A stretch of 15,276 nucleotides of DNA from a virus (Duplodnaviria; Heunggongvirae; Uroviricota; Caudoviricetes). The position numbers and the translations under genes were made by a program. The notes beneath the pieces were generated by a model. The model worked only from the letters and a program-made list of their open reading frames with translations. It had not been told where the DNA came from and made no database searches. Below are positions 1,445 to 12,415 of the stretch, piece by piece (the stretch's first letter is position 1; each line of letters opens with the position of its first letter). The stretch is from the IMG/VR virus record IMGVR_UViG_2778261168_000006, one strand, 5' to 3'.

Positions 1445-1558
1445 CCCCCTAGTTTTTTCAAGTCAACTCACATCAACAAAATCCTTTAAAAACATATATG
1501 TTATGTTCTTTTTAGTCATTTGAGGTCAACCCTTGTCTCTTGAAATCAACTCGCAATT

Positions 1559-1607
1559 GGGGGCACAATCAGGGGCATGTTCTGTTCGGTCCAGGAAATG
1601 TGCCCCC
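1559..1607 (+). promoter_or_regulatory. 9-bp inverted repeat GGGGGCACA / TGTGCCCCC bracketing the int ribosome-binding site
   Basis: Arms at 1559-1567 and 1599-1607, 31-nt spacer containing AGGA (1593-1596); right arm ends 1 nt before the int ATG at 1609. Could be a protein-binding site or an RBS-sequestering RNA hairpin. Confidence 0.3.
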
Positions 1608-1608
1608 A

Positions 1609-2799
1609 ATGATGCTGAATGCCCGCAAGGTTGAAGCTGCGAAAGGAAAAGAGAAGAGCTACAAGCTGTCTGATGGAGGTGGACTTTACCTTCAGGTTGA
1701 ACCTAATGGCTCGCGTTACTGGCGTATGAAGTACCGTTTTGCTGGTAAAGAGAAGCGCTTGTCCTTTGGTGTTTATCCAACAGTCACACTTGCTGATGCC
1801 AGACAAAAACGAGAAGACGCAAAGAAACTTCTCGCAGTAGGTGAAGATCCTGGCGAAGTGAAAAAAGCAAAAAAGCAGGCTTTAAACGCAGCGATTGAGA
1901 CACTTAACCCATTCAGAGACGTGGCGTTAGAGTGGCACAAAATGAAATCTCCCAAATGGTCTGAGGGCTATGCTTCAGATATCATTGAAGCATTTGAGAA
2001 AGACATTTTCCCGCATATTGGACATAGACCTATAGCTGATATTCAGCCCCTTGAACTGCTTGAAGTTCTGAGGTTGATAGAAGCACGAGGCGCTATGGAG
2101 AAAGCGAAGAAAGTCCGTCAGCGATGCGGTGAAGTTTTCCGCTATGCCATCGTAACGGGTAGAGCAATCTACAATCCGGCACCGGATCTTGCCAGCGCGA
2201 TGCAAGGACATGAAGCAGTCCACTATCCATTCCTCAAAGCCAACGAGCTGCCGGAGTTCTTTACTGCCCTTAACGCTTATTCAGGAAGTCCAATTGTATT
2301 GTTGGGGGCACAATTGCTTATCCTGACAGGCCTAAGAACTGGAGAACTAAGGGCAGGTGAGTGGCGTGAGGTGGACTTTAATAATGCGGTGTGGGAGATT
2401 CCAAAGGAACGTATGAAAATGCGTAGGAGCCATATTGTCCCGTTGCCAAAACAAGCATTATCCCATCTCAAAAGTTTGAAAAACCTAACTGGGAACTACC
2501 CGCTGATGTTCCCTGGACGCAACGATCCTAGCAAACCTATGAGTGAAGCAAGCATTAATCAGGTTTTTAAACGTATTGGATATGCAGGGCGTGTTACGGG
2601 ACATGGTTTCAGGCATACGATGAGTACGATTCTACATGAGAAAGGATTTAACAGCGCTTGGATTGAAACCCAGCTTGCTCATTTGGACAAAAATTCTATT
2701 CGTGGAATTTATAACCATGCCCAATATCTCGAAGGGCGAAGAGAAATGATGCAATGGTATGCTAATTATTTATCTGAGCTAGTTGGTACTCATAAATGA
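1609..2799 (+). CDS. P4-family tyrosine integrase (site-specific recombinase with N-terminal arm-binding domain)
   Basis: Translation MMLNARKVEAAKGKEKSYKLSDGGGLYLQVEPNGSRYWRMKYRF... matches the conserved N-terminus of P4-type integrases; C-terminal region has the expected R...HxxR...Y layout (GHGFRHT, IRGIYNH). Start moved from the track's 1540 to the ATG at 1609 on the basis of the family N-terminus and AGGA at 1593-1596. Confidence 0.85.
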   Translation: MMLNARKVEAAKGKEKSYKLSDGGGLYLQVEPNGSRYWRMKYRFAGKEKRLSFGVYPTVTLADARQKREDAKKLLAVGEDPGEVKKAKKQALNAAIETLNPFRDVALEWHKMKSPKWSEGYASDIIEAFEKDIFPHIGHRPIADIQPLELLEVLRLIEARGAMEKAKKVRQRCGEVFRYAIVTGRAIYNPAPDLASAMQGHEAVHYPFLKANELPEFFTALNAYSGSPIVLLGAQLLILTGLRTGELRAGEWREVDFNNAVWEIPKERMKMRRSHIVPLPKQALSHLKSLKNLTGNYPLMFPGRNDPSKPMSEASINQVFKRIGYAGRVTGHGFRHTMSTILHEKGFNSAWIETQLAHLDKNSIRGIYNHAQYLEGRREMMQWYANYLSELVGTHK

Positions 2800-3620
2800 A
2801 TGTTTTAAAAATTAATAATACTGATTCTCTGCTCAGAGATTACTACCAATTAGATGAGGCTTCAGAAAAAATTGGTTGTAATGAAAAGGATATACTTTGG
2901 TTTGCTAGAGAACGGGATGTAGAGTTATGCATGGAATTTCATGATGATGAGTATGATGTTTCATGTGGTTTGAAGATCGATGGTCAAATGGATGAGTTCT
3001 TATCCAATCTGAAATCTTTACCGCGAGACAGAAATGGCAATATTATGTTGTCAGATTTAAGCTCTATAAGAATTCCTGATGAAAATAATTTAATTGATAA
3101 AAATGGCTTTATTCGGTGCTTCATATCCGGTTTATGGGCTGTTGATTATGAATATAAAGATCTGTTAGTTAAACATGAAGGACAACCGGATTCCTGGCCT
3201 CAGCATTTTTTAGTAGCAGGTACGCCTAATGTAAATTATAAGGCAACGCTTTATGTTAATTATGATGAAAAAGAAAATTATTATCTTTTTGAGGTTTTGT
3301 GGATTACAAAAGTACAAATTCAAAAATTCATTGACTTAGTATCATGTGAGCAAAAGCGGATAAAAAACACCAACAAATATAAATCACAATCTGAAGCGCA
3401 AAAACAAAAGCATGCAGTTCCTCGGGCTGAAATACTCATGGCTGTTATTTCACTCTATCATCGTGATATGAGGTTAAGAAGAGAGAGCCCAGCAGCGATA
3501 GCTGATTATCTTTTTCAACACGCCAGTGAGTTCTGGCCTAAGGCCGGAGAGCCGCCTTTGAGCTATGATACTGTTGTTAGTTTGCTTCGTAGCTGTATGA
3601 AAAATACAAAATTTAACTGA
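2796..3620 (+). CDS. hypothetical protein, 274 aa, AT-rich, overlapping the int stop (ATGA); unknown function
   Basis: Long ORF in markedly AT-rich DNA relative to int and backbone; start codon overlaps int stop (ATG 2796-2798 / TGA 2797-2799); followed by a hairpin plus T-run. No motif recognised by eye. Confidence 0.6.
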   Translation: MNVLKINNTDSLLRDYYQLDEASEKIGCNEKDILWFARERDVELCMEFHDDEYDVSCGLKIDGQMDEFLSNLKSLPRDRNGNIMLSDLSSIRIPDENNLIDKNGFIRCFISGLWAVDYEYKDLLVKHEGQPDSWPQHFLVAGTPNVNYKATLYVNYDEKENYYLFEVLWITKVQIQKFIDLVSCEQKRIKNTNKYKSQSEAQKQKHAVPRAEILMAVISLYHRDMRLRRESPAAIADYLFQHASEFWPKAGEPPLSYDTVVSLLRSCMKNTKFN

Positions 3621-3745: not shown

Positions 3746-4045
3746 ATGTTATCCAAGCATGACAATACTACTTTGCAACGCCCTTCAATGGATTCTCTGG
3801 TCGATATGAAGTTTATTACATCAGATTGCTTACTAAGTGATAAATGGATTTATAGGTTGATTTCTTTAAATCGTTTCCCTAAACCTATAAAAATAGGACG
3901 GATGTCGCGTTGGCGGGCAGCAGATTATTATATGTGGAGAGATGGGTTCGAAGAAAACTCTGGACAGAAATTTGAAGGGATGAGAGAAAAGGCAAGAAAC
4001 ATTAAAAGTGGGAATACCTTAGCGTCTACTCCCACAATTCAATAG
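3746..4045 (+). CDS. alpA: AlpA-family phage transcriptional regulator (excisionase-like HTH), 99 aa
   Basis: Core KFITSDCLLSDKWIYRLISLNRFPKPIKIGRMSRWRAADYYMW resembles AlpA/prophage CP4-57 regulatory protein; GGAG at 3734-3737 precedes the ATG; sits after int as in CP4-type islands. Start could be an internal Met. Confidence 0.65.
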   Translation: MLSKHDNTTLQRPSMDSLVDMKFITSDCLLSDKWIYRLISLNRFPKPIKIGRMSRWRAADYYMWRDGFEENSGQKFEGMREKARNIKSGNTLASTPTIQ

Positions 4046-4376: not shown

Positions 4377-4553
4377 ATGGCTAAACAGAAGTGTACCTGG
4401 TTATTTGCGGCGATCAACCGCAGTCAGCGCAATGCCCGTCCTGTGATGTTAAGGATCAATGCAGATAACGAGCGGTCAGCGCGGCGCAGACTTGCCCCGG
4501 ACTATGTGCTGAGCTTTGCCAGTCGCATTCCTTGCGGAGGTGAAAATGCGTAA
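4377..4553 (+). CDS. small ORF (58 aa) missing from the ORF track; possibly Icd/Ash-like small phage protein
   Basis: ATG at 4377 preceded by AGAGG (4363-4367); translation MAKQKCTWLFAAINRSQRNARPVMLRINADNERSARRRLAPDYVLSFASRIPCGGENA; stop overlaps the next start (ATGcgTAA at 4546-4553). Family assignment is from memory and tentative. Confidence 0.45.
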   Translation: MAKQKCTWLFAAINRSQRNARPVMLRINADNERSARRRLAPDYVLSFASRIPCGGENA

Positions 4554-4936: not shown

Positions 4937-5221
4937 ATGAATATTTCAAACGGGCACAACGGTGCTCAGGGCCACTCCTTGCCTGAAAAACACTATACCG
5001 GTGCTTTTGCCTATGGGTTGTCAGAGGACGGTTTCGGAAAGCTGGCCAGAGCCAGAAAGGCCTGCGACATGCTGCAGCTTCTCTTTTCTGAATACCCGTC
5101 TCAGGGCGGAACGCTGGATGCAGGCTGTGCGCCAGGCATTGCCGCGCTGATGGAGTACCTGCGGGCAGATTTGACGGATATTGCGCACAGCTGCGCACTG
5201 ATTGAAGGAGGTGCTGAATGA
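4937..5221 (+). CDS. hypothetical protein, 94 aa, early operon
   Basis: ATG at 4937 with GGAG at 4924-4927; stop overlaps next start (ATGA at 5218-5221). Confidence 0.5.
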   Translation: MNISNGHNGAQGHSLPEKHYTGAFAYGLSEDGFGKLARARKACDMLQLLFSEYPSQGGTLDAGCAPGIAALMEYLRADLTDIAHSCALIEGGAE

Positions 5222-5601
5222 ACCAGCCGCAGGTTTCCATTTTCCCGGCAGAAATGACCACCGCACTGTACCGGCGGGCGATTGCATCGGCATGGCGGCA
5301 GAAAATGCTGACCGAAACCGGCAGTAATCGGTGTGGTCCGCACAGCCTGACGGTTGAGCGTATTGAAATGGCCATTGCCCTGCATATTGAGTGCGCACTG
5401 ATTAACGAGTACGGCGAAGAACAGGGCGCCGCTGTCGCGCTGGCACTGCTGACTGACATGCTGGAGCCGTCACTGCTGACTGCGCCGCCGGTACTGACCG
5501 TGCGCGGCTGTGAAGTGATGGCGGAGCTGTACCGCACGCTTCCGGCGGCCTTTGATGATTTCTGCAGCACGGGTGTGGCGCTGTATCAGGGGGAAGTATG
5601 A
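5218..5601 (+). CDS. hypothetical protein, 127 aa, early operon
   Basis: ATG at 5218 preceded by AAGGAGGTG; stop overlaps primase start (ATGA at 5598-5601). Confidence 0.5.
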   Translation: MNQPQVSIFPAEMTTALYRRAIASAWRQKMLTETGSNRCGPHSLTVERIEMAIALHIECALINEYGEEQGAAVALALLTDMLEPSLLTAPPVLTVRGCEVMAELYRTLPAAFDDFCSTGVALYQGEV

Positions 5602-8270
5602 CAACACAGACGGTTACGCAGATTTCAGCCGCCGCGCGGGGGAAATGGCCCGTTATTCTGCAGATGCTGCGTATTGATGTACCTGAAAACGGCAGGCACG
5701 GTCCCTGCCCGAAATGTGGGGGCAAGGATCGTTTTCGCCTCGATGACCTTGACGGGCGCGGGACGTGGATTTGCAGCCAGTGCGGCAATGGTGACGGTCT
5801 GGATCTGGTTAAGCTCATGACCGGTTACGGCGTCAGAAAGGCCGCGCAGGAGGTGGCGCAGGTGCTTAATGTGCCGGATATGCAGAAACTGCCCGTTAAG
5901 CCTGCCAGGCAAAAAGCCCCTAAACGCGACATGAGCCTTACCGTGGCGGCGCTGATGAAAGAGAGCCACACGGGAGAAAGCCCCTATCTGGCCGGGAAAG
6001 GGTTTGCCGGATACCCGGCCTCCCTGACCGGGAGCGTGCAGCATATCAGCGGTAAGGATTTCCCTGCCGGTTCCCTGCTGTTACCGCTCACGACCAACGC
6101 CGGAGCCGTGACCGGTGCGCAGCTTATCGCCCCGACGGGTGAAAAAAGCTTACTGCCCGGCAGCACGATGAAAGGTGCGTTTGTGGCGCTCAGCCCGTTA
6201 CCGCCTGAACCACCGGTACAGGTGGTGATTACCGAAGGCTATGCCACGGCGCTGACGGTAAGCCAGCTCACCGCCGGATGCGTAGTGGCGGCCATATCGG
6301 CGGTCAACCTGCCCAACGTTGCGCAGTCGCTGCGGGCACGCTGGCCGGAGGTAAAAATTATTATCGCCGGTGATAACGATTTTCAGGACGGGGGCGAAAA
6401 CCCGGGCAGAGCCTTTGCTGAACGGGCGGCAAAAGCCGTCGGCGGCTGGATGACGCTGCCACCGGGAGAGATGAAGGCCGACTGGAATGATTTCCATCGA
6501 GAGCACGGTATTACCCGCGCCCGTGATGCCTTTCGTAACGGTCTGGTGCTGTGCGGAGAAGGCCGCACGCAGCTGCCGCACGGGTTCCGTCTTACCCATG
6601 AATATCTGTGGTATGAAAAACAGGTACAGCGCAACGGTGAGACGGAGATCCAGAACGTCAAAATATGCAACCCGCTGCGCGTGACGGCAATCACCTGCGA
6701 TGCCGATGGCGGTAATTTCGGGCGACTGCTGGAGTGGGAAGATACATGGGGAGAGCGCCGCCGCTGGGCGATGCCGATGGAAATGCTCAGTGGTAGCGGT
6801 GAGGAACTACGCCGGGTACTGCTGGTTAACGGGCTGTCCTATATCAGCACCACCGGTGAGGCCCGTGCCCGCCTGATGGAATATATCTCGCTGTGTAAAC
6901 CGGAACGCCGCGTGACCTGCGTCAGCCGCACTGGCTGGCATGGTCAGGTTTACGTCCTGCAGGATGAGGTCAGCGGTGAAGGTGCAGAGGGTGTCATTCT
7001 CCAGACCACTTCCGTGCAGGGGCGCGATTTCCGTGTGTCAGGTACAACGGAGGAATGGCGGGAGCACGTTTCCCGTTACTGCACCGGTAACTCCCGCGTG
7101 GCGTTTGCCGTCAGTCTGGCCTTTGCTGCACCCCTGTTACGGCTGGTTGGGATGGACGGCGGCGGCTACCACCTCAAGGGGGAATCGACTGACGGTAAGA
7201 CCACCACCATGAAAGCGGCAACCTCCGTTTGTGGCGGGCCTGATTACTGGCAAACGTGGCGGGCAACCGGCAACGCGCTGGAGGGATGCGCCAGCCGCCG
7301 CAACGATGCCGCCATGATGCTTGATGAGATCCGGGAGGTGGACGGACGCGAGGCGGGTAATATCGCCTACATGCTGGCAAACGGTCAGGGCAAGGGCCGT
7401 GCCGGTACGGACGGTGAGCTGCGCACCCGTAAGCAGTGGCGGCTGCTGTTCTTTTCAACCGGCGAGCTGTCACTGACCGAACATGCGGCAAAAGCCGGTG
7501 AGCGTACCTTTGCCGGGATGGAAGTCAGGATGATCCAGATCCCCAGCGATTCCGGGAAATTTGGCGTATTTGAGGAGCTGCACGGCTTCGACAGCGGCAA
7601 GGCTCTGGCGGAACATCTGGAGTGGGCCACGTCCAGCTACTACGGTTCGCCGTTCAGGGAGTGGCTGAAAGCCCTGACCGCTGACCTTAACGGGCTGACG
7701 GCACAGGCAAAGTCACTGATGAAGGAATATACAGCCGCCCTGACCCCGAAAGATGCGGGTAATCAGGTAGGCCGGGCTGTGAACCGTTTTGCACTGGTGG
7801 CGATGGCGGGCGAGCTGGCAACCCGGCTGGGGATTACTGGCTGGCCTGAGGGGGAAGCGCTGCGGGCAACCCGCGTGTGCCTGAACGCCTGGCTGAAAGA
7901 TCGCGGGCACACCGCCAATCAGGAAGATATTGCCGCGCTGGAGCAGGTACGCAGTTTCTTTACCGCGAATCAGTACAGCCGCTTTGCAGACTGGCACGAC
8001 GAGCGCAACCGCCCCGGCAATATGGTGGGCTGGCGCAGGGTGGAGAAAGGCAGTACCGCGCAGGGCACGGAAGCCGTCACCACGTTCTACGTTATGCCGT
8101 CCGGCTGGAAAGAAATCTGCCGGGGATTTGACCCGCGCAAGGTGGCACGTCTGTGCGCGGATCGTGGATACCTGCAGCCTTCTGCCGACGGAAAGCTGCA
8201 GACAACCATTCGCCCGCCAGAGATGAATCCCCGCAGGCTCTACGTCTTCAACAGCGAGGTGCCGGGTTAA
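5598..8270 (+). CDS. P4 alpha-like replication protein: zinc-ribbon primase N-terminus, Toprim region, P-loop helicase C-terminus (890 aa)
   Basis: N-terminal CPKCGGKDRFRLDDLDGRGTWICSQCGNGDGLDLV is a primase-type CxxC...CxxC zinc ribbon; acidic Toprim-like motifs (VVITEGYATA, IIIAGDNDFQDGGENPG); Walker A-like GESTDGKTT in the C-terminal half. GGGGGA RBS before the ATG at 5598. Confidence 0.85.
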   Translation: MTTQTVTQISAAARGKWPVILQMLRIDVPENGRHGPCPKCGGKDRFRLDDLDGRGTWICSQCGNGDGLDLVKLMTGYGVRKAAQEVAQVLNVPDMQKLPVKPARQKAPKRDMSLTVAALMKESHTGESPYLAGKGFAGYPASLTGSVQHISGKDFPAGSLLLPLTTNAGAVTGAQLIAPTGEKSLLPGSTMKGAFVALSPLPPEPPVQVVITEGYATALTVSQLTAGCVVAAISAVNLPNVAQSLRARWPEVKIIIAGDNDFQDGGENPGRAFAERAAKAVGGWMTLPPGEMKADWNDFHREHGITRARDAFRNGLVLCGEGRTQLPHGFRLTHEYLWYEKQVQRNGETEIQNVKICNPLRVTAITCDADGGNFGRLLEWEDTWGERRRWAMPMEMLSGSGEELRRVLLVNGLSYISTTGEARARLMEYISLCKPERRVTCVSRTGWHGQVYVLQDEVSGEGAEGVILQTTSVQGRDFRVSGTTEEWREHVSRYCTGNSRVAFAVSLAFAAPLLRLVGMDGGGYHLKGESTDGKTTTMKAATSVCGGPDYWQTWRATGNALEGCASRRNDAAMMLDEIREVDGREAGNIAYMLANGQGKGRAGTDGELRTRKQWRLLFFSTGELSLTEHAAKAGERTFAGMEVRMIQIPSDSGKFGVFEELHGFDSGKALAEHLEWATSSYYGSPFREWLKALTADLNGLTAQAKSLMKEYTAALTPKDAGNQVGRAVNRFALVAMAGELATRLGITGWPEGEALRATRVCLNAWLKDRGHTANQEDIAALEQVRSFFTANQYSRFADWHDERNRPGNMVGWRRVEKGSTAQGTEAVTTFYVMPSGWKEICRGFDPRKVARLCADRGYLQPSADGKLQTTIRPPEMNPRRLYVFNSEVPG

Positions 8271-8304
8271 GGCTGTGCGTGAGTCTTATTTATTAAGGGT
8301 AACA

Positions 8305-8493
8305 GGTGAAACAGGTGGAACAACCGTGTTTTACAAGGGCTGAAACTGTTCCACCTTCTGAAATAGTGAGGTGGAACAGGTGAAACGCCAGCCGATCCGC
8401 TGTTCCACCTTGTTACCCGCGATGTTTCACCTGTGCTGTGCATATAAATGCTTTGCAAAACAATGCGGTAACACATGTTCCACCTGTTCCACC
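8305..8493. repeat. iteron cluster (ori/crr-like): nine copies of GGTGRAACA / TGTTYCACC in both orientations
   Basis: Copies at 8305-8313, 8314-8322, 8370-8378, 8379-8387 (top, last one ends G) and 8347-8355, 8401-8409, 8423-8431, 8476-8484, 8485-8493 (bottom), in an intergenic stretch directly after the primase-helicase gene. The 9-mer resembles the P4 alpha-binding iteron TGTTCACC recalled from the literature. Confidence 0.6.
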
Positions 8494-8581
8494 GCATCAG
8501 GGACATAAAGCAGGCTGAAACAGAGGGCATTTTTATCTGGCTGGCTTTCATAGCCACGTCTGAATAACCGCAGACGCCCGT

Positions 8582-8650
8582 TGTGCCAGCCACCACACAC
8601 CGAGCGCCGGTAGTGCGCTTGTGTCAGCCACGACACAATTGTCGTAACGA
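8582..8650 (+). promoter_or_regulatory. candidate Ogr/Delta-activated late promoter for the sid-psu-delta operon
   Basis: TGT-N12-ACA dyad at 8582-8599 (TGTgccagccaccacACA), the spacing reported for P2/P4 late-promoter activator sites, about 55 bp upstream of a plausible start near 8645; AGGAG RBS at 8662-8666 before the ATG at 8672. A similar half-repeat TGTGTCAGCCACGACACA follows at 8621-8638. Confidence 0.4.
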
Positions 8651-8671
8651 ACCAACCCGACAGGAGAAGTC

Positions 8672-9415
8672 ATGAACAACACCGCAGAGAATAACGACCT
8701 TTCCACTTTTCCGGCTGTAACGCAGCGGGCACTGGAAACCCTTAATGTCGCCCGAAATGAGTGGCTTGAAGTTCGACGCCAGCAAAAAGCGGCAGCGGAT
8801 AATATTGCGACAATCCGCCAGCGCCGCGCTGAAATGGAAGCCACGACTAACGCGCTGAATGAGGAGTGGCGCACGCTGTTTCGTGAAAGTCAGGGCGTAG
8901 TCTCAAAGGAAATGAAAAAACTGCGCACGGAAATTGCGCTGGGACGAGAAACGCTTGAGGATTTTGATGAACTGCTGGCAGCTCAGGAAAGCGAAGATGC
9001 ATTTTTACCGCAGAAGGCTGCGCAACTGGCCGGACAGTATATCCACGCTCACGAAAACCTTCTGAGTATTCGCGCAAAACAAATCTGGGAAGATTTTATG
9101 CAGGCGCATGGTAAGGCTCTAATCCAGACGCTGAGCCTGCTCAAATCCACAATGGGACGGGAAGCCAGTGCTGTTACCGGAGTGGTGCATTCTGTAAACG
9201 ATCCGGACACACTGCTGAAAGACTTTATCCGCAAACATATCACCGAACCGGCACTCGCTAACGACGCGATGCCGGAACAGGACCCGGTGTTCAGACTGGC
9301 GGGCGTTGCACCGGATTATGCGGCCCGTCTGGATTTCAGTAAACAGCCCTCTCCTGCAGCTATTCATAAAATGAAGGTTCGTCAGGAACGTGCCGGGAAG
9401 GAGAAATCAGTATGA
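8672..9415 (+). CDS. sid: Sid-like external scaffold (capsid size determination) protein, 247 aa
   Basis: First gene of the late operon; size close to P4 Sid as I recall it; Ala/Glu/Arg/Gln-rich helical sequence; shares the motif DFMQAHGKAL with the downstream Psu-like protein (NFMQANGAAL). Assignment rests on context and paralogy, not a search. Confidence 0.55.
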   Translation: MNNTAENNDLSTFPAVTQRALETLNVARNEWLEVRRQQKAAADNIATIRQRRAEMEATTNALNEEWRTLFRESQGVVSKEMKKLRTEIALGRETLEDFDELLAAQESEDAFLPQKAAQLAGQYIHAHENLLSIRAKQIWEDFMQAHGKALIQTLSLLKSTMGREASAVTGVVHSVNDPDTLLKDFIRKHITEPALANDAMPEQDPVFRLAGVAPDYAARLDFSKQPSPAAIHKMKVRQERAGKEKSV

Positions 9416-9963
9416 CGGCCCGGGCCACTCCTGCGCAGGCACTTACCAGTTTTCGAAATGCCCGTATTCTGTGGGCCGGACATAGTGAGAGCCGAAAAGC
9501 TGCTGAACAACAGATAGAATCTCTCCTCACTGCCACGGAAAAACCAGCAGATTATGCCCGACAGCTCGGGTTACTGCGGGAACGCCTGGATGTGCTGAAA
9601 TGGCAGATTAACTGCGCTGCGCGTGAGTGTATGTACTCGCAGCATCTGCTGATGGAGGCCTGCACAGAAGACGCTCTCAGCAATTTTATGCAGGCGAATG
9701 GAGCAGCCCTGACATCTGCACTGGCTCCGTTTCTTAAGGGGCGTGGAGGGGTTGACGTTGCGTCCCGTATGTTACGCAGTGCCCTGGTTCGACAGCTGGC
9801 AATAACACCGCCTGAAATCGCCGGGGATTATCGTGAGATTCTGGATGAATCCGGTGTGAGGCCTGACCCCAAGATGGTTCGTGACTGCCAGGGTACTTAC
9901 ACTCCGGCACAACATCTGCGCTTTCAGCAACGCCTGAATGACATTAACGATATGCAGGAGTGA
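9412..9963 (+). CDS. psu: Psu-like protein (polarity suppression / capsid decoration), 183 aa
   Basis: Start overlaps the sid-like stop (ATGA); motifs KWQINCAAREC, FMQANGAALTSALAP and TPAQHLRFQQR resemble P4 Psu as recalled; size close to P4 Psu. Confidence 0.6.
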   Translation: MTARATPAQALTSFRNARILWAGHSESRKAAEQQIESLLTATEKPADYARQLGLLRERLDVLKWQINCAARECMYSQHLLMEACTEDALSNFMQANGAALTSALAPFLKGRGGVDVASRMLRSALVRQLAITPPEIAGDYREILDESGVRPDPKMVRDCQGTYTPAQHLRFQQRLNDINDMQE

Positions 9964-9968
9964 TATTG

Positions 9969-10241
9969 ATGGCACTTAAATGTCCTGAATGCGGTACGAC
10001 GGCACACGCCAGAACCTCCGCCTATGAAGCTCCATCGGTTAAACGCTCATGGTATCAGTGCCAGAACCTGGAATGTTCCTGCACATTTACCGCACTCGAA
10101 AGTGTGGATACGATAATTATGAAGCCCCGGCGCAATGTAAATGTACCAGTCGAACCGGAGCAACCTGAAAAGCAGCAGAGAACGCTCAATCGCTATGGCT
10201 CCGCGTCAAAGCTGTCAGGCCGTCAGCAAATCCCGGTCTGA
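9969..10241 (+). CDS. Ogr/Delta-family zinc-finger late-gene transcriptional activator, 90 aa
   Basis: MALKCPECGTTAHARTSAY...RSWYQCQNLECSCTF..ESV matches the P2 Ogr signature (CPxC...AHARTS...YxQCQNxxCSxTF). ATG at 9969 with AGGAG at 9956-9960 preferred over the track's GTG at 9960. Single-finger size, unlike the duplicated P4 Delta. Confidence 0.8.
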   Translation: MALKCPECGTTAHARTSAYEAPSVKRSWYQCQNLECSCTFTALESVDTIIMKPRRNVNVPVEPEQPEKQQRTLNRYGSASKLSGRQQIPV

Positions 10242-10262
10242 TTAGCAAAAAACGCCCACGTA

Positions 10263-10289
10263 ATCCCGGTCCTGTACCGGGATTTTTTA
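10263..10289 (+). terminator. rho-independent terminator of the late operon
   Basis: Perfect 8-bp stem ATCCCGGT / ACCGGGAT with 5-nt loop, followed by TTTTTT (10284-10289), 22 nt after the delta-like stop. Confidence 0.7.
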
Positions 10290-10332
10290 CGCCTTTTCCC
10301 TGGCTGGCCTGAGAGCGCGTGAGTGCATGTCT

Positions 10333-10371
10333 ATGGCGCATGAAAACGCATGAGTATCATGCGCCATTTTT
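10333..10371 (+). other. second structured element: 11-bp inverted repeat plus T-run
   Basis: ATGGCGCATGA (10333-10343) / TCATGCGCCAT (10357-10367) with 13-nt spacer, followed by TTTT. Could be a tandem terminator or a protein-binding palindrome. Confidence 0.3.
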
Positions 10372-10440
10372 GACGCGAAAGCCCTTGTGCGGCAGCTTCT
10401 GAGACGATTTACGGGGTGCATGAAAACCAGTCTGTTAAGC

Positions 10441-10470
10441 GAAGCGGGCAGGCGGGCGGGGCTGTGCGAT
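10441..10470. other. GC-rich tract, candidate cos (packaging) site
   Basis: GGCAGGCGGGCGGGGCTGTGCG lies immediately after the late operon, where P4 has cos, and partly resembles the P2/P4 cohesive-end sequence as I recall it (GGCGAGGCGGGGAAAGCAC). Match is imperfect; hypothesis only. Confidence 0.3.
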
Positions 10471-10670
10471 GTTTGTATGCGACTCGTTTATTTTTCTTGG
10501 CTTTGTGTGCGGTAAGAGAGCCTATCAAGCTGGGCTTGGCGAAAGGAAGCGTATTTTCTATTGAGAAGCCTATAATTGCTCTGAGGCCTCGAGTATGCTT
10601 CAAACGCAGCTTACAAGGTTGATTATGTCACTTCGCTTTTTTTTGTCTTCTTCTGGGATGCTGGGAAAAA

Positions 10671-10699
10671 CTTCAAATCTGGCTAAAATTGAAGTAATA
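10671..10699 (+). promoter_or_regulatory. candidate sigma70 promoter for the cargo operon
   Basis: TTCAAA (10671-10676), 17-bp spacer, TAATAT (10694-10699) in an AT-rich leader about 90 bp upstream of the cargo start. No TGT-N12-ACA dyad was found here, so this operon is probably not Delta-dependent. Confidence 0.3.
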
Positions 10700-10786
10700 T
10701 CAGGCAGTCATACTGAATAATAATGTTACTAATTTTTCATTGAAACTATTAGCTTAGTGGTTTTCACACAGTAGAAAGGATTTAAG

Positions 10787-11710
10787 ATGAAAGTCAGACG
10801 AATTGGAATTTCTTTAACTAATAAAAATAAAACAATTCGCTTTTCCGATTTTATAAATTACTTAATCCCATTCAATGGGGAAAGAATGGGGTTTGATGGA
10901 GGGGAGCGCTTTTTCCTTTTCCACGAAGATGATGTGTTTTTTTCAGGTGTCGTTTTATCCTTTAAGGATCAGCGAAGAGATTGTAGGGCAAGATTTCAGG
11001 ATGGACAATTTACTATCCATACAGCTGATATTCTTGATGATGAAAAGTTGATTGATTTTAATTTTTTTGTTGTTAAGAAAAGCTCTTTGAAAGGCCTTTA
11101 CGAGTACTATCATAACTCTTGCAGTATACATGTTTTGTTTGCTTTGTTACGTAATAAATTCAATGCGTTGAAAGCGGAAAAAATTTCTAATTATATTGCT
11201 GATAATTTGGCTTTGGGGCGTGAAAAGGCTGAGGCTAAGGGTAAAAAGGAGTATGCAGGAAGACTCTCTACTTCTATCTTAATTGATAATAGAGATATAC
11301 CTACAGTCCTAGCTGAATACGCTAAGGTTAAGAAAATAGAAATGTTGTTTGATGCTCAGCAATTTGCTGTTGGGCATGCAGTTGCACTACAAAGGAGTTC
11401 GCGCGAGGTTAAAGTATCTTTTAATATCACGGATTCTGAACAATCGAATATTGATAGACTAACCCAAGGCGTAGTTGAGCTTGCAGGCAATGTAGGTTTC
11501 AAAAAAGGTAGTGTCAGTACTGTAGATAGTCATGATATAGAGCGAACTATTTCTATCTTAAATTGTCCTAAGAGATTAGGTGAGTGTGAGTTCGAAGATT
11601 TAGCTCATAGGATTGATGGCTTGACAGTGGAGAATTTTCATGAAAATGAAATACTTGTCGAGCTAAAAAGGGAAATAAACGAGGGGGAGTATCGTGCACT
11701 CTTTAATTAG
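10787..11710 (+). CDS. cargo gene A: hypothetical soluble protein, 307 aa, AT-rich; candidate component of an uncharacterised anti-phage system
   Basis: ATG at 10787 preceded by AAAGGA; AT-rich ORF with no hydrophobic segments; no known catalytic motif recognised by eye (no GS...DxD nucleotidyltransferase signature, no Walker A, no HxH/PD-(D/E)xK pattern I could place). Its 3' end overlaps gene B by 17 bp. Confidence 0.65.
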   Translation: MKVRRIGISLTNKNKTIRFSDFINYLIPFNGERMGFDGGERFFLFHEDDVFFSGVVLSFKDQRRDCRARFQDGQFTIHTADILDDEKLIDFNFFVVKKSSLKGLYEYYHNSCSIHVLFALLRNKFNALKAEKISNYIADNLALGREKAEAKGKKEYAGRLSTSILIDNRDIPTVLAEYAKVKKIEMLFDAQQFAVGHAVALQRSSREVKVSFNITDSEQSNIDRLTQGVVELAGNVGFKKGSVSTVDSHDIERTISILNCPKRLGECEFEDLAHRIDGLTVENFHENEILVELKREINEGEYRALFN

Positions 11711-12287
11711 ATATATAGCTCAGTTCCCTATGGCCAGTATTTTTAAACAAATGCTGGGTATTGTTATTTTCTCGCTAATCCTAGTGTGTGGTATTGCATT
11801 TCTGTATTATAAGTATGGATTCAGCATTACCTTAGAGAAAGATACTACTTTCTTTAATTATTATGAATCAAAAATAAGAGGGTATCTTTTTTCAGGCTTC
11901 ATTTCTGTTGGCTCTTTTTTGTTGTCATTACACACTTTTGTAATAGTAAATCTTAAAGATAAACTTTTTGATTCAGAAGCATATAAAAATAATTATATAG
12001 ATTTTAAAAGTCAACAGATTAGAAATTTCACCGCTGATATGATTAAACCATATGAGTACTATGCTCCTTTGAATGTTCTATCAGTCTTCCTTAATGTTTC
12101 TATATGGTTATCGATTATTACTGCTGTTATACAGTTTACACTTGGCTTTTATGATAACTCATATACAGCTCTTTTTTGTATGTACCTGGCTCTTGTGACT
12201 GTCCTCTTCCTCTTAAATTGCCTGATACTTATACGCTGTAACATTAAAGTTTGGCTAACACTTGAGCAAAAAAATAAACCTAAATAA
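11694..12287 (+). CDS. cargo gene B: hypothetical integral membrane protein, 197 aa, four predicted transmembrane helices; candidate effector/sensor partner of gene A
   Basis: GTG at 11694 preceded by GAGGGGGA (11681-11688); alternative ATG at 11730. Four hydrophobic segments (approx aa 20-38, 63-86, 126-150, 158-181) with positively charged flanks. AT-rich like gene A. Confidence 0.65.
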   Translation: MHSLIRYIAQFPMASIFKQMLGIVIFSLILVCGIAFLYYKYGFSITLEKDTTFFNYYESKIRGYLFSGFISVGSFLLSLHTFVIVNLKDKLFDSEAYKNNYIDFKSQQIRNFTADMIKPYEYYAPLNVLSVFLNVSIWLSIITAVIQFTLGFYDNSYTALFCMYLALVTVLFLLNCLILIRCNIKVWLTLEQKNKPK

Positions 12288-12291
12288 GCAA

Positions 12292-12332
12292 TGCCCCTAC
12301 CATTAAAGCATGAACTGAGTAGGGGCACTTTT
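12292..12332 (+). terminator. terminator candidate after the cargo operon
   Basis: 9-bp stem TGCCCCTAC (12292-12300) / GTAGGGGCA (12319-12327), 18-nt loop, followed by CTTTT. Confidence 0.35.
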
Positions 12333-12398
12333 GGGGGCATAAGAAAAAATATGGCAAATAAAGTCCTTTAATTTCAATTTGTTATGCTTATATTTTGT

Positions 12399-12415
12399 TC
12401 CTATTATCGGCACCA
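12399..12415 (+). repeat. attR core: duplicate of the tRNA-Thr 3' end (TCCTATTATCGGCACCA)
   Basis: Exact 17-bp copy of 1428-1444, no tRNA body attached; marks the right boundary of the island. Confidence 0.8.

Follow-up and report, generated by a model that had tools for sequence, protein, structure and literature searches.

The stretch of DNA analysed here (the window) comprises 15,276 nt and contains a whole integrated P4-like satellite of approximately 11 kb, located at a tRNA-Thr gene. The gene for tRNA-Thr(CGT) lies at 1369-1444, and the 17 nt of its 3' end, TCCTATTATCGGCACCA (1428-1444), recur at 12399-12415. These direct repeats are likely the attL and attR of the element, which is flanked by chromosomal genes (for an aldehyde dehydrogenase, for XdhC and for a molybdopterin-binding protein). 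The presence of sid, psu and delta together with an integrase gene at a tRNA attachment site is what is expected of a P4-like satellite. Among the core genes of such satellites, alpA is represented by a weak match only and epsilon has no assignment among the window ORFs. The genes are co-linear, all on the plus strand, in the order int-alpA-...-rep-ori-sid-psu-delta, where ori stands for the candidate origin:

1540-2799, plus strand: integrase (Pfam)
3746-4045, plus strand: AlpA/excisionase-like ORF, weak (Pfam E 5.9e-4, below the cut-off; PHROG E 5e-6)
4377-4553, plus strand: small repressor/Icd-like ORF (PHROG "transcriptional repressor" families; Icd-like in an E. coli relative)
5218-5601, plus strand: DUF5375 protein, homolog of P4 ORF106 (Pfam DUF5375; 42% identity to P4 7020-7292)
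5598-8270, plus strand: 890-aa primase-helicase (Pfam Zn_Ribbon_Prim, Toprim_3, DUF927)
8582-8599 and 8620-8637, plus strand: two TGT-N12-ACA boxes, 38 nt apart, then CACAATT
8672-9415, plus strand: Sid homolog (phrog_6165 E 8.6e-93; weak Psu-family match)
9412-9963, plus strand: Psu (E 1.4e-45)
9960-10241, plus strand: Ogr/Delta zinc-finger protein (Ogr_Delta E 3.6e-16)

The DUF5375 gene overlaps the start of the gene for the 890-aa protein. P4p07 is likewise annotated as DUF5375, and we take P4 ORF106 / DUF5375 to be cnr, the copy-number regulator; by analogy, the homolog in the window likely modulates the use of the predicted origin. Among the window ORFs scanned with Pfam, none belongs to a Rep_3/RepA family, and the sole replication protein found is the 890-aa primase-helicase. 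The P4 neighbourhood equivalent to 4377-4553 encodes the CI immunity RNA; for C4 and isrK the window gave no Rfam match at gathering score.

A 274-aa ORF (2796-3620) lies between the integrase gene, whose stop codon it overlaps, and the alpA-like gene, and is without a match in Pfam, PHROG and PADLOC. The cargo region from delta to attR (10242-12398) is the counterpart of the usual P4 defence hotspot. Its ORFs code for proteins of 307 aa (phrog_2802, function unknown) and 197 aa (no Pfam, PHROG or PADLOC match), whose place in the E. coli relative L002 is taken by another cargo, namely genes for an AAA ATPase and a hypothetical protein. It is possible that 10242-12398 represents an uncharacterised defence locus.

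The 890-aa gene and sid, the first gene 3' of both the repeat array and the promoter, are separated by a non-coding gap of 401 nt (8271-8671). Two minus-strand ORFs at 8267-8596 and 8427-8636 were considered as genes and rejected because they have no PHROG match and are unannotated in RefSeq relatives, and because 1-nt indels occur in the gap among close relatives; PADLOC had no match for the longer one. The gap of a 94%-identical E. coli copy bears no RefSeq annotation. An Rfam scan of the window returned the tRNA only and no RNA family within the gap, and a scan of 8100-8800 for sigma-70 promoters and intrinsic terminators found none.

The downstream part of the gap contains the two TGT-N12-ACA boxes in a region that aligns with the P4 sequence upstream of sid and is conserved in sid-carrying relatives. 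Judged by this similarity, 8582-8637 is likely a Psid-like late promoter for sid-psu-delta with sites at approximately -55 and -18. Its activator is presumably Delta/Ogr, as at the late promoters of P2 and P4. The Psid-like promoter (8580-8650 of the gap) is separate from the repeats and outside the predicted origin.

The repeats themselves occupy the upstream part of the gap. GGTGRAACA has eight exact matches in the window, at 8305, 8314 and 8370 on the plus strand and at 8347, 8401, 8423, 8476 and 8485 on the minus strand, compared to a chance expectation of 0.22 on average and 2 at most in dinucleotide shuffles. A ninth copy, GGTGAAACG at 8379-8387, has one mismatch; beyond it, a one-mismatch search of the window gave only scattered singletons outside the cluster, approximately at the rate of chance. 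The nine sites and their 2-nt flanks gave a position weight matrix (PWM) with the extended consensus (C/A)AGGTG(G/A)AACAG, and a scan of the whole window with it found zero further sites, even at 4 bits under the weakest true site. Three degenerate units of GGTAACA type (GGGTAACA at 8297-8304, TGTTACCC at 8411-8418 and GGTAACAC at 8468-8475) sit where relatives have iterons. In total the array holds about 12 units, nine strong and three degenerate, which span 8296-8493 as follows:

8296-8322, plus strand: left outer triple of iterons that follow one another head-to-tail every 9 nt, first the degenerate AGGGTAACA, then GGTGAAACA and GGTGGAACA; its homologue in relatives is +26/+35/+44
8347-8355, minus strand: lone inverted iteron TGTTCCACC, at a position (~+77) conserved in relatives
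8370-8387, plus strand: inner tandem pair GGTGGAACA and GGTGAAACG (one mismatch), conserved at ~+100/+109
8401-8431, minus strand: three inverted units, TGTTCCACC at 8401-8409, degenerate TGTTACCC at 8411-8418 and TGTTTCACC at 8423-8431
8432-8475, no strand: AT-rich spacer, candidate DNA-unwinding element, including degenerate GGTAACAC at 8468-8475
8476-8493, minus strand: right outer tandem pair, TGTTCCACC twice, the counterpart of the left outer set in inverse orientation

A repeat search recovered the tandem pairs as well as an 18-nt inverted repeat formed by the outer sets, in which 8305-8322 and 8476-8493 are 94% complementary. The GC content, approximately 0.6 in the flanking gene, drops to 0.35-0.375 in two stretches, 8280-8319 and 8440-8479, and the local minimum in the spacer 8432-8475 is 0.35 compared to about 0.61 in the gene. 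Across relatives the composition and position of the spacer are conserved and its sequence is not. The spacer lies off-centre, with the majority of units to its left.

An earlier note on this DNA, made from the letters alone, had reported nine copies of a 9-mer within 190 bp in a non-coding gap 3' of the primase-helicase gene. Motif enumeration bears out the number, as eight exact copies and one with a mismatch between 8305 and 8493. The gap is indeed non-coding, and the array starts 26 nt past the stop codon with the degenerate unit and 35 nt past it with the first exact one. The two tandem pairs that the note counted on each strand hold in part: on the plus strand they are 8305/8314 and 8370/8379, the second with the one-mismatch copy, and on the minus strand one pair is exact (8476/8485) while the other consists of 8401 and the degenerate TGTTACCC at 8411-8418. 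The note would have abandoned its reading if the motif were equally dense elsewhere in the genome; within the window, the PWM has no match outside the array.

The 890-aa protein encoded directly upstream consists of a Zn-ribbon (aa 32-68), a Toprim domain (aa 209-304), a DUF927 AAA+ helicase (aa 330-612, Pfam E 3.7e-90) and a C-terminal part (aa ~640-890) with a helical linker and a winged-helix domain at ~780-885. In a BLAST comparison with P4 alpha, aa 6-316 were aligned at 37% identity (E 2e-46), and no similarity was found past aa 316. The sole PDB sequence matches in phmmer were 8tch (4.7e-15), the SaPIbov1 replication initiator-helicase, and 5dgk (3e-13), the SCCmec Cch helicase. In an AlphaFold2 model of aa 640-890, computed from 62 sequences with a mean pLDDT of 86.4, a helical bundle leads into a winged helix-turn-helix. 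Against aa 780-885 the Pfam family HTH_56 ("Cch helix turn helix") aligns over nearly its full length with 16.8-18.7 bits, where the curated cut-off is 26.2. The C-terminal family of P4 alpha comprises PF19263 and PF03288, the latter being the origin-binding domain; the C-terminal domain of the window protein showed no relation to PF03288 in single-sequence and profile-profile (hhalign) comparison, with a probability below 1%. On the evidence of these matches the protein appears to be a fused primase, self-loading helicase and initiator of "PriRep" type, and its C-terminal winged helix is the predicted reader of the iterons, akin to SaPI Rep initiators.

One genome per species was scanned, which gave 78 loci encoding relatives of the protein. 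Their identity amounts to 57-99% in Enterobacterales and 36-45% in Burkholderiales and other proteobacteria. For the 67 loci with sufficient downstream sequence we determined where in the ~10 kb of the locus 7-mers are repeated most densely, and in 60 of them this repeat window begins at the stop codon of the initiator gene. The copies in that repeat window number 6-13, compared to 3-6 elsewhere in nearly all of the 60 loci; the exception is contig L015 with a second, equally dense array at the contig start. The array follows the initiator gene with or without downstream sid, psu or delta, and it also adjoins the gene in the non-satellite context of Burkholderiales islands. This argues that the array is tied to the initiator gene and not to the late operon.

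The order of the units is conserved as well. It reads + + (+) / - / + + / - - (-) / AT-rich / - - (-), at near-fixed distances from the stop codon; in one example these are +26/+35/+44, -77, +100/+109, -125/-135, the AT-rich part and -190/-199, the sign giving the orientation. The GC minimum within 300 nt past the stop codon has a median of 0.28, compared to 0.60 for the gene; most Enterobacterales loci have this minimum 165-195 nt past the stop codon. In three loci (L038, L046 and L062, from Klebsiella spallanzanii, Scandinavium and Apirhabdus) a GTGGGAACA-type array of 10-13 copies lies about 1.1 kb past the rep stop codon, which implies that a gene was inserted between rep and ori.

The unit itself differs between lineages. 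The class GGTGGAACA is shared by the window, Pantoea stewartii, Citrobacter, Enterobacter and Shigella, and it also occurs with a Serratia protein of only 65% identity. The class GGTGTAACA was found in Pantoea, Yersinia, Xenorhabdus, Proteus and Brenneria; further classes among the relatives are GGGGTAACA, CTGGTAACA, TGGATACA, GTAGTACA, CAGGGGCA and TGGGGACA, and those of Burkholderiales are GGTGTAACG, GCGGTTACG and GGGTTACA. If origins of the G-class and the T-class are aligned, all copies switch from G to T at one position, while the spacers diverge freely. Such a change in concert is as expected for sites that are read by one protein. One must keep in mind that the unit has no strictly diagnostic base within an origin; in some relatives the copies of one origin carry G, A or T at iteron position 5. 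Units of GGGTAACA type remain unchanged between the GGTGGAACA and GGTGTAACA origin classes, whereas the other units all switch, and GGTAACA is also the core of the commonest unit classes of the family. These degenerate units may be ancestral or lower-specificity sites.

Two relatives, L050 (Serratia sp. Ag1) and L048 (Brenneria corticis), encode proteins of ~690 aa that are homologous to the window protein over its aa ~326-888 only and have another N-terminus without the P4-type primase domain. Their origins keep the layout and belong to known unit classes, GGTGGAACA with 11-12 copies and GGTGTAACA with nine. That the N-terminus is swapped while origin layout and unit classes are kept shows that the primase part is exchanged as a module.

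A circular E. coli episome of 12,152 nt codes for an integrase, an Icd-like protein, PerC and a TOPRIM-DUF927 protein, and has no further annotated replication gene. Its array has three tandem GTTGGTTCA units from 26 nt past the stop codon and three inverted copies. This episome lends indirect support to autonomous replication. Three other records were rejected as uninformative in this respect: OX345456.1, from a fragmented assembly, is linear, pTAO100 also carries RepM, and a Photobacterium record is a linear phage-plasmid-like molecule.

Which residues of the protein set the specificity for the unit was addressed by comparing close pairs. Proteins that are 96-98% identical and have different units show few differences in the C-terminal domain, including positions 846 and 866/867/870. 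L022 and L023 (96.3% identical, GGTGTAACA and CTGGTAACA) differ in P846S, S850A, K866R and T870S, among others; L024 and L027 (97.6% identical, GGTGTAACA and tGGGTAACA) in A846T and T867P; and the window and Pantoea proteins (91% identical, G and T unit) in P861A, T870S and P878V. In the model, 846-855 form the second HTH helix, which is the predicted recognition helix, and 866-870 lie beside the wing strands. A motif DG[K/R/W]xQ at 864-868 tracks the unit class in several clades. S819 as discriminator between GGTGGAACA and GGTGTAACA was ruled out, as L007 has N819 with GGTGGAACA. In close pairs the winged helix is not clearly richer in differences than the variable N-terminus, and L050 has the same unit as the window (GGTGGAACA) at only ~50% identity in the C-terminal domain. 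The correlation of residue and unit is weak and at most suggestive of specificity determinants among the C-terminal residues. If this were true, the natural variants (K866R, T867P, P846S/A846T and P861A/T870S/P878V) would amount to a compact code for origin specificity, which would also govern incompatibility among co-resident satellites.

Among known systems the closest model is the rep-ori module of SaPIs (SaPI1, SaPIbov1, SaPI5) and PICIs, and not the ori and crr of P4. The SaPI Rep helicase doubles as initiator, and its C-terminal winged helix recognises the iterons; SaPI Reps need no loader, and in SaPI5 the Rep is fused to a primase (PMC9371898). In the SaPI origin 6-12 iterons follow directly on the rep ORF; they flank an AT-rich centre, each side has two or more of them, and the two sides are oriented oppositely (PMC9371898). 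Gram-negative PICIs have a SaPI-like origin layout, and a rep-ori segment of EcCICFT073 sustained a temperature-sensitive plasmid, whose replication was abolished in a rep mutant (PMC6092414). The window agrees with this picture in the position of its array directly 3' of the initiator ORF, in the short iterons in oppositely oriented sets, the left outer set 8296-8322 (plus) facing the right outer pair 8476-8493 (minus), and in the AT-rich stretch. The protein also agrees, with a DUF927/MCM-like AAA+ helicase, a C-terminal winged helix, a primase fusion as in PriRep5 of SaPI5, and a fold and sequence that match 8tch and 5dgk. The array in the window therefore shows every sequence-level feature of a SaPI/PICI rep-ori replicon. 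There are differences. The units have 9 nt (11-12 nt with flanks) and tandem units abut, compared to 5-6 nt in SaPIs; the element is, unlike a PICI, a P4-type satellite with sid, psu, delta and cnr; and, differing from both, the primase is of P4-alpha type (Zn-ribbon and Toprim) and the predicted origin abuts a probable Delta/Ogr-type late promoter.

The likeness to P4 consists of the satellite context, the N-terminal primase with its 37% identity, the Cnr homolog directly upstream, and an iteron cluster ~180 nt upstream of the sid ATG that is followed by a Psid-like promoter, as at the P4 ori. Its type-1 repeats are octamers, GGTGAACA/TGTTCACC, and TGTTCACC has zero copies in the window. The earlier note had given the P4 iteron correctly and had described the window unit, GGTG[G/A]AACA, rightly as one base longer. 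In other respects the two systems part: the helicase of the window is DUF927 and that of P4 alpha D5/SF3, the origin-binding domain has no detectable relation to PF03288, there is one cluster compared to an ori and a crr 4.5 kb apart in P4, and the gene order is co-linear where that of P4 is divergent (PMC8628076). Compared to the alpha-ori-crr system the window thus has the primase and lacks the helicase with PF03288, the octamer and the second cis site. Since P4 needs both ori and crr and the window has one cluster, P4 is no safe guide to its function. As the reader domains have no detectable relation, the likeness of the iterons is no evidence for a shared reader. What the note had proposed, an origin or cis-replication region for an alpha-like protein, is strongly supported, as far as the origin is concerned, by the family-wide array and the winged helix; "alpha-like" fits the primase and does not extend beyond it.

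SCCmec Cch and Cch2 share the DUF927 core and a C-terminal winged helix of HTH_56 type; Cch is reportedly part of a primase-helicase pair and not fused to a Toprim primase. Iteron plasmids with Rep_3/RepA initiators (pSC101, RK2, F, R6K) resemble the window in direct repeats that are bound by a winged helix beside an AT-rich unwinding element. Their initiators, however, are small, act as monomers or dimers and recruit the host DnaB via DnaA and DnaC, whereas that of the window would itself be helicase and primase, and its iterons stand in inverted sets. We found no paper on the origin of DUF927-type P4-like satellites or on these unit sequences.

By analogy to these modules we propose, with a probability of about 80%, that the satellite starts its vegetative replication at the array 8296-8493, which would be the cognate binding-site array of the primase-helicase-initiator encoded upstream. 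The rep-ori principle as such is known from earlier experiments on SaPIs and E. coli PICIs; the window represents a P4-like satellite that carries it. After induction, hexamers of the 890-aa protein would dock with their C-terminal winged helices on the 9-nt iterons, as in SaPIs and PICIs. The iterons would act as oppositely oriented sets on either side of the AT-rich spacer, and the spacer 8432-8475 would melt. The DUF927 AAA+ rings might then self-load as helicases, with no need of a separate loader, and the N-terminal Toprim/Zn-ribbon domain might lay the first primers for the host polymerase. The Cnr homolog encoded upstream probably tunes initiation, by analogy to P4.

Copy control is another possible role of the array, next to initiation or in its stead. 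Plasmid iterons commonly combine the two functions, the P4 cluster directly 3' of alpha is crr and not ori, and a Cnr homolog is encoded just upstream of the initiator. We nevertheless consider it unlikely that the main role of the array is in copy control, incompatibility or enhancement, in the manner of plasmid handcuffing or the P4 crr, with strand opening elsewhere. The 11-kb element has no second cluster anywhere and hence no other candidate origin for this initiator, and the array has its own conserved AT-rich spacer between inverted sets in the SaPI/PICI origin layout. In EcCICFT073 deletion of the equivalent region, the ori, significantly reduced replication (PMC6092414).

Its place between two operons, ~90 nt upstream of the Psid-like promoter, might suggest that the repeats are operators for Delta/Ogr, AlpA or another factor and control sid-psu-delta or read-through from the initiator gene, the more so as every unit contains a TGT or ACA triplet as Delta/Ogr sites do. 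However, no pair of units makes a TGT-N12-ACA dyad, two proper dyads exist separately at 8582-8637, an array of the same type also stands behind the initiator gene where sid, psu and delta are missing, and 9-12 sites over 200 nt with an AT-rich centre are atypical of operators, so that such a role is very improbable. A packaging signal for the hijacking of a helper, pac or a terminase site adjacent to cos, is to our mind hardly credible. Satellites must carry a packaging site, and the P2/P4 cos 19-mer had no match in the window at up to three mismatches, although this 19-mer may be wrong for the helper concerned. The sequence of the unit, however, follows the lineage of the initiator and not that of any helper, the array stands beside the initiator gene in the non-satellite Burkholderiales islands too, and no terminase gene is nearby.

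If the array is the origin, as we prefer to read it, the near-identity of the iterons, GGTGAACA in P4 and GGTG[G/A/T]AACA in the satellite, gains a further aspect. It could be due to chance, to convergence, or to a new reader having replaced the former one while the site was conserved. Primase, Cnr, origin position and a near-identical iteron are shared, yet the helicase and binding modules are non-homologous, which would fit a recruited reader or convergence. That the DNA site is older than its reader, with a winged helix of SaPI/Cch type recruited to a pre-existing P4-type origin whose site and regulator were kept, or that the two converged, is a speculative idea which we hold to be rather doubtful.

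The analysis provides a predicted function for the sole long non-coding stretch of the replication module in this type of satellite. The gap with the predicted origin recurs, 90-99% identical, in ~6% of complete E. coli genomes (329 of 5,426), and the type occurs in many other Enterobacterales as well. By their sequences, a sizeable branch of P4-like satellites would appear to replicate with a self-loading helicase and an origin of PICI/SaPI type instead of the textbook alpha, ori and crr of P4. This is relevant to the classification of satellites because HMMs for "alpha" may miss or mislabel such elements. The natural classes of origin specificity could be used to study recognition of iterons by winged helices and incompatibility among satellites, and to build orthogonal replicons.
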